Below, piece by piece: positions 29,359-29,769 of a stretch of DNA of 64,000 nt. The stretch is from NCBI GenBank assembly GCA_965207885.1, contig OZ242311.1:1120001-1184000 (forward strand). Reading direction: 5' to 3'. Below the pieces are notes generated by a model, which saw nothing but the letters and a program-made list of their open reading frames with translations, was not told the DNA's origin and did not search any database. Numbering within the stretch: the first letter of the stretch is position 1; every line of letters starts with the position of its first letter. The DNA comes from Candidatus Latescibacterota bacterium (lineage in GTDB: Bacteria; Latescibacterota; UBA2968). The position numbers and the translations under genes were made by a program.

Positions 29359-29769
29359 ATGCAAAAGCTGGTAAAAAGAAAGATGCATTACGAGACCATT
29401 ATGCCCGTAGAGGCTTATGAGGAAGAGAATAATAACAATGATGATTGGACGGAGGATCTAGTTAGTATTGGTATCACTTTTTTGGGGGCAGTCACTGGAT
29501 TCGTAACTAGAAACCCTTGGGTAGGAGCTGCTGTTGCTAGTGTTGGTATCGGACATACCGTCGCGAATAATGAAGAAATGATGGAGGGCATAACCGCGGG
29601 AATTCATGCCCAGACAGAAGCTGATTTGCAAATGGCTGATGCTGCATTAAATGCAGTTAATAATGCATATAATAATGGCGCACAGGCTATTACAGATGCA
29701 TATATAGATTGGACTAGTGACCTTGACATTGACTACGACGACCCACTCGTACAAGCATATGGTGAATAG
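29359..29769 (+). CDS. Putative bacteriocin/RiPP precursor (136 aa) with CLI_3235-like leader
   Basis: GGAGG RBS; leader MQKLVKRKMHYETIMPVEAY; Gly/Ala hydrophobic hairpin; acidic remainder; lies among exporter and protease genes. Confidence 0.65.
   Translation: MQKLVKRKMHYETIMPVEAYEEENNNNDDWTEDLVSIGITFLGAVTGFVTRNPWVGAAVASVGIGHTVANNEEMMEGITAGIHAQTEADLQMADAALNAVNNAYNNGAQAITDAYIDWTSDLDIDYDDPLVQAYGE

Follow-up and report, generated by a model that had tools for sequence, protein, structure and literature searches.

The window (the whole stretch of DNA analysed, 64,000 nucleotides of contig OZ242311.1 from a Candidatus Latescibacterota bacterium) contains a gene cluster in which all genes lie on the + strand: a regulator, an HlyD-family protein, an ABC exporter, two Zn-ribbon proteins, a putative precursor, two further Zn-ribbon proteins, a fusion of an S8 subtilase to a DUF1611 domain (hereafter the S8 fusion), an acyl carrier protein (ACP) and a BtrH_N-like protein. 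Here we analyse the open reading frame (ORF) of the putative precursor, which spans positions 29359-29769 (+) and translates to 136 amino acids (aa). We consider it fairly likely that a bacteriocin-like protein, made with a leader and exported, has its structural gene in this ORF. Its parts are as follows.

29346..29351, + strand: Shine-Dalgarno sequence (GGAGGA) for the precursor, separated by seven bases from the ATG at 29359
29359..29418, + strand: leader-coding part, residues 1-20, ending in PVEAY (from family conservation and the DNA match to the sister locus L004)
29419..29769, + strand: core-coding part, residues 21-136 and stop codon, with an acidic N-terminal stretch, a hydrophobic hairpin, amphipathic helices and an acidic tail
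29725..29766, + strand: conserved C-terminal tail DIDYDDPLVQAYGE, in which VQAYGE corresponds to 29749-29766

The predicted leader, MQKLVKRKMHYETIMPVEAY, is basic (net charge +2) and its final residues are P-V-E-A-Y. The core of 116 aa (residues 21-136) contains no Lys, no Cys and one Arg, and with 21 Asp and Glu residues it has a net charge of -20 and a pI of 4.05. A preliminary description, made from the sequence alone, had already reported the basic 20-aa leader ending in VEAY and a 116-aa core without Lys or Cys and with one Arg, and the translation confirms both. The VQAYGE end and the internal AY sites reported there were also found: AY occurs at residues 19, 103, 114 and 133, and shuffling the protein 100000 times gave four AY in 263 cases. 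The Gly/Ala-rich hydrophobic hairpin is likewise present, at residues 35-65 (29461-29553), but it had been quoted two residues (VT) short, and with a best 19-residue Kyte-Doolittle mean of 1.34 it is only borderline as a membrane helix; 29 of the 55 members of the protein family described below reach at least 1.6.

An AlphaFold2 model of the precursor (41-row alignment) is all-helical at low confidence (mean pLDDT 46.3), and the ESM Atlas gave no usable lead (best feature score 0.80). We rejected a Pfam match of residues 34-106 to TcdA_TcdB_pore (E 0.034, 12.9 bits versus a cut-off of 27) as a composition effect of the hydrophobic helical stretch. Just past the hairpin, the window protein has His66 and Asn70 (29554-29568), whereas the family has Asn66 (29/41) and His70 (37/41), followed by a near-invariant Glu72. 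His and Asn are thus swapped between i and i+4 on the same face of a helix, which hints that His and Glu form a functional site there.

The protein is a member of a real, unnamed family. A word-indexed search detected 54 relatives of 121-157 aa, none with a Pfam domain, which together with the window protein make up 55 members; Pfam and NCBIfam scans assigned no family to the window protein. Source names were found on only two relatives, both 'hypothetical proteins', and 'Poribacteria' and 'Gemmatimonadetes' on two relatives are labels given by the sources. A profile search of 1.84 billion representatives yielded 26 matches at E <= 0.001. Two of the profile-search matches (P0067 and P0069) were rejected as chance, as they are Kelch-repeat proteins that match just a short V-E-A-Y-D-P-E...W stretch, and several matches of 45-73 aa resemble truncated or frameshifted copies. 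The family occurs in 9 of the 168 genomes of the phylum, all from one genus (8 of 20 other species and the source genome).

Conservation is concentrated in the leader. The proteins start at MQKL in 54/55 members (P0002 was called from an upstream start), and P[VI]EAY occupies residues 16-20 in all 55. Of the first 20 columns in a 41-member alignment, 13 show no variation and five more almost none, whereas the overall mean column identity is 33% and the middle is highly variable. Glu23 is invariant in the family, and an acidic core with a net charge of -16 to -24 is present in 55/55; the number of Cys residues ranges from 0 to 3, and a Cys-free core is not family-wide.

To place the gene in its context, we compared the window with five loci from Latescibacterota metagenome-assembled genomes (MAGs) and with L009, the source genome's second locus, at a distance of 100 kb. 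These loci have the same layout as the window, and their proteins have the following identities to their window counterparts.

HlyD: 91-99% (L004, L006, L007 and L009)
ABC exporter: 94-99% (sister loci)
S8 fusion: 90-96%
ACP: 92-97%
BtrH-like protein: 85-93%
Precursor: 37-45%

Because the leader is invariant and the core variable while the processing and export genes are constant, the precursor looks tied to the S8 fusion. The DNA comparison locates the variable part precisely. The window matches L004 at 25567-29422 (90.7%) and again at 29684-33764 (85.7%), and the match is absent at 29423-29683, that is, in precursor codons 22-108. Contigs from two DNA runs fit the window up to 29418/29421 and again from 29727. 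Since the DNA matches break there between conserved flanks, the core middle appears exchangeable: by this comparison, it behaves as a cassette between the conserved leader and, in the VQxYGE subtype, the conserved tail.

The second locus illustrates this pattern. Its precursor (L009 12547-13023; G000:C1:1046546-1047020) has 158 aa, is 37.5% identical to the window protein and ends in a Gly run (DDGGG), and its HlyD and ABC proteins are 98.7-98.9% and its S8 fusion 96% identical to those of the window. The 25 bases upstream of the precursor gene, Shine-Dalgarno sequence included, are also found there. In addition, L009 contains a CPBP gene, a family-2 glycosyltransferase, an additional BtrH-like gene and a DUF2059 protein. 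A CPBP/Rce1-like gene directly follows the precursor in L006, L016 and L009, and a candidate of another family in L005; we take the CPBP/Rce1-like family to be linked to bacteriocin self-immunity. Among the nine loci that carry the family, no clean rule connects the C-terminal type to the downstream gene (Zn-ribbon or CPBP). Two loci are decayed: in L008 (9941-10462) the precursor is fused by a deletion to a CPBP tail and the S8 and BtrH-like genes are fragments, and in L017 (9487-9666) the precursor is shortened to 59 aa.

Sequence of the region 28500-30600, in whole or in part, occurs in 20 public runs from 11 studies, and many of the runs are labelled sponge metagenome. Contigs from these runs include variants with rearranged Zn-ribbon copies, such as a joint 28882 -> 29857 in an RNA-library contig. 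One RNA run (X20), which has only a small share of the sequence, was rejected as a sign of expression: its 164-nt contig with a depth of 2.6 covers 29289-29418 and then diverges, it comes from a relative, and DNA carry-over is possible. Differences in contig depth between leader and core were not used, as the depth of a contig does not allow the parts of one gene to be ranked.

The tail differs from the leader in its distribution. V[EQ]xYGE forms the extreme C-terminus in 31/55 members, versus 3/55 with an internal V[EQ]xY. At position x of V-Q-x-Y-G-E, the 31 members have L (14), A (13), E (2) or Q (2), so that Ala is not conserved; the subgroup conserves P129, V131, Q132, Y134, G135 and E136. 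The tail is absent from the other 24 members, of which 14 end in ...VLH or ...PVH, seven in Gly runs and three otherwise, and the S8 fusions at loci of members without the tail (ends ...VLH, ...GGG) belong to the same class (85-96% identical). Both end motifs exceed chance at the family level. Judged from these alignments, the C-terminal echo of the leader motif is real, but it is a feature of a subtype.

The preliminary description had suggested that the S8 domain may cut at both V-[EQ]-A-Y sites and thereby trim, segment or cyclise the product. Alignment upholds the leader motif in all members and comparison upholds the link between a leader-bearing precursor and the S8 fusion, but the tail, found in 31/55 members and with Ala in 13 of these, does not qualify as a general S8 site. 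Internal AY occurs in 13/55 members; column 104 of the alignment is occupied in 4/41 sequences, and column 115 is V, F or I. As these internal sites are not conserved, segmentation at them is without support. A second S8 cut at the tail that removes Gly-Glu is plausible, because the leader of the sister type in L005 ends in V-Q-L-Y, the same four residues that precede G-E in 14 family members. Double cutting or cyclisation would be possible.

The leader rule extends beyond the family. S8-DUF1611 fusions are present in 18 of the 21 genomes of the genus, in several paralogous classes, and in the sister clusters we found small ORFs with good Shine-Dalgarno sites between or beside the ABC/HlyD and S8 genes. 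These comprise five further, unrelated candidate precursor types, which gives six leader types when the window family is counted. The sister candidates have basic leaders of 21-25 residues that end in (A/L)-Y, their cores are net negative, and acidic N-termini are common to all cores. None of the five types ends in a motif like V-Q-x-Y-G-E. Their leaders end as follows.

VEAY: L013 and L016
A(R/C)AY: L014 and L015
VIAY: L011
VQLY: L005
VHAY: L010

The strongest argument for the (A/L)-Tyr junction as a processing site is that this leader rule recurs on unrelated cores beside S8 fusions. Subtilisins favour a large hydrophobic residue at P1 and a hydrophobic residue at P4, and they cut their own propeptide after Ala-Tyr. 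No significant Pfam or NCBIfam family was found for the sister candidates, just two chance matches of 13 bits versus cut-offs above 430. A scan with a pattern made from the shared features of these ORFs matched the precursor alone in the 64-kb window and only these candidates in the loci. The family search with the L013 precursor type returned only four relatives, and a scan of metagenome contigs gave 447 pattern matches, none of them confirmed. In L010, L011 and L013-L016, we also observed large TPR proteins (686-713 aa), repeated pairs of TPR and CPBP genes, and thioredoxin-like and GNAT-like proteins, which sit between the candidate precursors and the S8 fusions; these domains were read by sequence appearance, with Pfam applied to one TPR and one CPBP example.

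The fusion enzyme itself is widespread. Among 7999 candidates scored, 487 protein clusters belong to the S8-DUF1611 fusion family at E <= 1e-20, and 105 of the 120 listed are 50-57% identical. Some relatives come from MAGs labelled Spirochaetales or Gemmatimonadetes. Most of the clusters are unnamed, and the few labels are generic ('S8 family serine peptidase', uncharacterised epimerase/dehydratase-family protein).

The genes and sites that surround the precursor gene in the window are the following.

24805..25494, + strand: receiver and AraC-type helix-turn-helix regulator at the cluster head (sequence and homology reading)
25649..26827, + strand: HlyD-family membrane fusion protein (Pfam HlyD_3 2.1e-12, HlyD_D23 3.8e-11)
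26859..28574, + strand: ABC exporter, 571 aa (ABC_membrane 1.5e-35, ABC_tran 1.7e-34)
28531..28905, + strand: Zn-ribbon (CxxC...CxxC) small membrane protein, copy 1, a candidate for an immunity or accessory role (weak TIGR04104 match, 2.7e-06, 27.7 bits versus a cut-off of 45)
28939..29274, + strand: Zn-ribbon small membrane protein, copy 2 (71% identical to copy 1, 96% to its L004 counterpart)
29803..29839, + strand: hairpin with a 15-bp stem and T-rich tail immediately 3' of the precursor gene, resembling an attenuator or terminator
29874..30191, + strand: Zn-ribbon small membrane protein, copy 3 (TIGR04104 1.7e-05, below cut-off)
30214..30516, + strand: Zn-ribbon small membrane protein, copy 4 (ORF list, TIGR04104 comparison and paralogy)
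30558..32474, + strand: minimal S8 subtilase and DUF1611/TIGR04066-like fusion, 638 aa (S8 at residues ~10-240, DUF1611-like at ~267-630)
32471..32740, + strand: acyl carrier protein (PP-binding 8.1e-11)
32722..33762, + strand: BtrH_N-like protein (sub-threshold BtrH_N match, 2e-05, 25.3 bits versus a cut-off of 29.7)
33893..33921, no strand assigned: bidirectional terminator-like hairpin at the cluster end (terminator-like site scan)

The S8 fusion matches Peptidase_S8 (6.7e-32), DUF1611 (5.3e-12) and DUF1611_N (1.6e-05) in Pfam, and it matches TIGR04066 over profile positions 1-360 of 361 (6.9e-43) with 147 bits, below the cut-off of 200. The best curated S8 model is the leader peptidase QhpE, which matches residues 16-237 with 143.8 bits versus a cut-off of 165. 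The S8 residues D21, H59, N143 and S203 are invariant in 11 sequences. As the catalytic Asp sits at residue 21, there is no space for a signal peptide or propeptide, and the S8 domain should therefore work in the cytoplasm. A complex prediction of the S8 fusion with precursor residues 1-45 scored 0.00, which says nothing either way. For the ACP, which has its Ser in G-L-N-S-M, the best NCBIfam matches are ACP models, all below their cut-offs; these generic models outscore TIGR04069 (6.6e-4, 20.1 bits versus a cut-off of 70). The BtrH_N match of the window protein spans profile positions 81-127 only, and similarity to BtrH_N at E <= 0.1 was found in 7/9 aligned relatives; Cys46 is replaced by Ser in 3/9, and His131 is present in 8/9 and replaced by Arg in 1/9. 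Its AlphaFold2 model (9 rows) has a mean pLDDT of 51.3, with the N-terminal half below 50, and a comparison to the PDB gave no match by sequence and only matches with E 0.38 and 0.77 by profile.

Regarding export, the HlyD protein also matches TIGR01843 (1.5e-23, below cut-off), and the ABC exporter is without an N-terminal C39 domain, as its matches to TIGR01846, TIGR01193 and TIGR03796 begin at profile positions 137-153. Seven TolC-like genes (14 OEP half-domain matches) lie elsewhere in the genome. The four Zn-ribbon copies are paralogous to one another and are two-helix proteins. Neither a radical SAM domain nor a DUF95 domain was detected by Pfam in the ten cluster genes scanned. Among terminator-like sites between 24400 and 34900, the hairpin after the precursor gene has the longest stem, with a folding energy of -34.7 kcal/mol (z -3.61). 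It recurs 3' of the gene in L004, L005, L006, L007 and L009, and the L007 copy differs by a compensatory pair change.

In L004, L009, L010 and L012, HlyD is likewise preceded by a homologous regulator. Just past the cluster of the window, there is a second receiver and AraC regulator that is split (33993-34217 and 34224-34694), and this split regulator (33993-34694) is nearer to the cluster-head regulators of other genomes. The cluster of ~10.8 kb is bracketed by a tRNA-Pro(GGG) gene (22979-23055) and by a degenerate direct copy of the 3' half of this gene with a downstream hairpin (33843-33921), and it looks like an insertion at the tRNA-Pro gene. No integrase was seen at the bracketed cluster; an ORF of 347 aa (23267-24310) is without family.

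When comparing the cluster to described systems, we find that in its logic it is closest to class II microcins (MccV type, class IIb), but that it is not a member. According to a review (PMC10233263), class II microcins have a short leader, a Gly-rich neutral to anionic core, export through ABC, HlyD-type membrane fusion and TolC components, and adjacent small membrane immunity genes. Class IIb microcins (MccE492, MccH47) have a conserved C-terminal module and additional tailoring genes, most microcins are neutral or anionic, and the largest confirmed cargo has 90 aa (PMC10233263). The earlier remark that an anionic pore-former would be unusual among bacteriocins is overstated, as it holds for Gram-positive bacteriocins and not for microcins. 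The window cluster shares the leader, the neutral-anionic Gly-rich core, the ABC, membrane fusion and TolC components and the adjacent small membrane genes. However, the leader ends in A-Y (PVEAY type in 55/55) without GG or GA, the ABC transporter has no C39 domain, and a cytoplasmic S8-DUF1611 fusion, an ACP and a BtrH_N-like protein replace the microcin genes. Furthermore, the core has 116 aa versus a maximum of 90, and the host belongs to a different phylum. Candidates for the adjacent immunity gene of class II microcins are the four flanking Zn-ribbon genes here and the CPBP/Rce1-like genes after the precursor in L006, L016 and L009.

Firmicute loci that combine TIGR04066, TIGR04069/ACP-related, subtilase, radical SAM and ABC genes have been mined as bacteriocin clusters, and the system is itself biochemically uncharacterised (PMC4573289, PMC10731318). 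The product of SacP23 reportedly resisted Edman degradation (PMC10731318), which would fit N-terminal blocking by the TIGR04066/ACP pair. As in CLI_3235/SacP23-type loci, TIGR04066-like, ACP-type, subtilase and ABC transporter genes stand beside a small precursor in the window. In contrast to these loci, the S8 and TIGR04066-like domains are fused and the scores are below cut-off (147 versus 200 for TIGR04066, 20.1 versus 70 for TIGR04069), there is no counterpart of the radical SAM protein TIGR04068 among the ten genes scanned, the precursor is Cys-free and twice as long, and a BtrH_N-like gene is added.

The PatA/PatG enzymes of cyanobactins are also S8 proteases that act at core-flanking motifs, and the end motifs are superficially similar, with PatE presumably carrying V-E-A-x before the core and A-Y-x-G-E after it. 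The earlier analogy to PatG did not hold, however. TIGR03895 reaches 35.1 bits versus a cut-off of 421.05, over residues 64-216 only, and S8 residues 10-238 align to residues 21-247 of subtilisin BPN' without a large insertion, whereas the macrocyclase insertion (capping helices) defines the PatG family. PatG reads the AYDG follower on the prime side, whereas the Tyr would be P1 here; the core has 116 aa versus 6-8 aa, and where a PatG-type system would have an AYDG-type follower after every core, V-Q-x-Y-G-E occurs in 31/55 members, with Ala in 13 of 31. Another parallel is QhpE, which removes the leader from the ribosomal substrate QhpC of quinohemoprotein amine dehydrogenase. QhpE is a small cytoplasmic subtilase without a propeptide and the best-scoring curated S8 model (143.8 bits); unlike QhpE, the window enzyme is fused to DUF1611, scores below the equivalog cut-off of 165 and has no Qhp genes beside it.

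BtrI/BtrH (butirosin) and HlyC, which acylates toxins of type I secretion, represent ACP-borne acyl transfer chemistry. The dedicated ACP beside a BtrH_N-like protein similarly suggests an acyl transfer to an amine before export, but here the N-terminus of a protein would accept the group, an enzyme that loads the acyl group was not identified, and the BtrH_N match is sub-threshold. With respect to ribosomally synthesised and post-translationally modified peptides (RiPPs), the comparison of loci lends support to a leader that would be removed by maturation enzymes, and for a putative modification of the core, ACP, DUF1611-like and BtrH_N-like genes are present. Unlike circular bacteriocins, the cluster has no DUF95 domain among the ten genes scanned. 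In the literature searched, we found no link of DUF1611 to RiPPs or of BtrH/DUF1611 to leader peptides.

Overall, we regard the protein as the probable precursor of a bacteriocin-like protein that is secreted and matured by a protease and that represents a previously undescribed kind. The reading of the leader as a substrate mark for the S8 fusion is well supported by comparison; the cleavage, its position, the acylation, the export, the toxicity and the immunity we infer. In the proposed route, the basic leader of 20 residues that ends in V-E-A-Y would target the protein to the fusion's cytoplasmic S8 domain, which would most likely cut after Tyr20 (P1 Tyr, P4 Val). The TIGR04066-like domain, the ACP and the BtrH_N-like protein would then tailor the product, and our best guess is that an ACP-borne acyl group is moved to the freed acidic N-terminus. 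We propose acylation only because of the Edman resistance of SacP23, the chemistry of BtrI/BtrH and the shared acidic N-termini. The anionic core of 12.4 kDa would leave through the C39-less ABC transporter, HlyD and one of the genomic TolC-like proteins, and may act on membranes through its Gly/Ala-rich hairpin. The flanking small membrane proteins, i.e. the four Zn-ribbon proteins here and the CPBP/Rce1-like proteins in sister loci, would protect the producer. The D-P-x-V-Q-x-Y-G-E tail would be a subtype-specific module and may be a second S8 site that loses Gly-Glu.

The role of this tail can be read in two other ways. The S8 domain might cut both V-[EQ]-x-Y sites, which would either trim Gly-Glu or join the Tyr134 acyl-enzyme to the new N-terminus to yield a circle of ~114 residues. 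We regard this as quite improbable. The terminal position of V[EQ]xYGE and the identity of the sister leader V-Q-L-Y to P4-P1 of the tail in 14 members are in its favour, and cyclisation would also explain the blocked N-terminus of the related firmicute product (PMC10731318). However, the same S8 class serves the 24 members without the tail, the five other precursor types have no such terminal motif, the S8 domain neither contains a PatG-type insertion nor passes the PatA/PatG model, and the ACP, the DUF1611 domain and the BtrH-like protein would be left without a role. Alternatively, the tail might not be a protease site but a functional module, either an export or uptake signal or an attachment site for a group delivered by the ACP and the BtrH-like protein. 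This is doubtful, though it deserves some weight: the tail lies within a conserved DNA flank and defines subtypes, class IIb microcins, which leave through an ABC/membrane fusion protein/TolC system, need a conserved C-terminal motif for their modification (PMC10233263), and at the second locus another tail is accompanied by an additional BtrH-like gene and a family-2 glycosyltransferase. Yet the two loci of the source genome have nearly identical HlyD and ABC proteins (98.7-98.9%) despite their different tails (VQAYGE versus DDGGG), so that the transporter does not read the tail type. Moreover, no enzyme is tied specifically to the VQxYGE type, whose loci carry Zn-ribbon or CPBP genes.

Two further explanations concern the nature of the product and the identity of the peptidase. 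The protein might not be a toxin but a small membrane or secreted protein, for example a signalling, surface or host-interaction factor, in which the N-terminus is a docking motif that may be retained. This would agree with the missing bacteriocin homology (no family in Pfam or NCBIfam), with Zn-ribbon neighbours that do not co-vary with the precursor, with a variable cassette within conserved ends as in antigenic or receptor variation, and with the sponge metagenome labels of runs that hold the stretch. We nevertheless consider it unlikely: leaders of this type are found again on unrelated cores, next to S8 fusions and ABC/HlyD pairs, genes of the immunity-linked CPBP/Rce1-like family adjoin precursors, and the catalytic residues of the S8 domain are intact. 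Finally, the leader or tail peptidase might be the BtrH_N-like protein, which presumably has a papain-like fold related to C39 peptidases, and the S8 domain would have a different task. The absence of a C39 domain from the ABC transporter leaves room for such an enzyme, and BtrH_N similarity in 7/9 relatives, with Cys or Ser at position 46 and a largely conserved His131, fits it. Against this stand the match under the Pfam cut-off and its restriction to profile positions 81-127, the Ser in place of Cys46 in 3/9 and the Arg in place of His131 in 1/9, the lack of a double-glycine motif in any leader, and the Tyr-ending leaders, which suit the preference of subtilases. We therefore judge it very unlikely.

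Several observations weigh against our reading of the ORF as a leader-bearing, exported, bacteriocin-like protein. Cleavage, modification, export and toxicity are predicted; the TIGR04066, TIGR04069, QhpE and BtrH_N matches are all under their curated cut-offs; and the gene context is known from one genus only (9/168 genomes of the phylum). The Zn-ribbon proteins are far more conserved (up to 96%) than the precursor (45%), a poor fit to cognate immunity, and such a role for them is uncertain. Among the sister loci, L012 has no AY-leader ORF, and the L010 candidate precedes the ABC genes instead of standing between them and the S8 gene. The hairpin of the window copy is merely moderately hydrophobic (best 19-residue mean 1.34).

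If the reading is true, it would reveal a new leader type (basic, 20-25 residues, ending in Ala/Leu-Tyr) together with a new enzyme set for exported proteins, and this coupling of leader and enzyme would lie in diderm bacteria outside Proteobacteria. As the fusion enzyme is not rare, the substrate rule would make many loci readable. The TIGR04066/ACP pair, which bacteriocin-mining pipelines have included since 2015 although its function is not known (PMC4573289, PMC10731318), would also gain its first testable substrate. A bolder version, to which we give little credence, is that a widespread and so far undescribed 'AY-leader' maturation machine consists of the S8-TIGR04066 fusion, the ACP and the BtrH_N-like protein, cuts after Tyr and blocks the N-terminus of acidic cores of 9-15 kDa. 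The N-terminus would be blocked by an acyl group from the ACP or, for proteins of the V-Q-x-Y-G-E subtype, by an S8 ligation to Tyr134 that yields a circular protein; either route, if true, would constitute a new ribosomal natural product class, far larger than usual RiPPs. For the bacteria that carry these loci, our reading would mean that microcin-like, anionic, cassette-swapping competition systems extend to uncultured bacteria whose DNA occurs mainly in runs labelled sponge metagenome.

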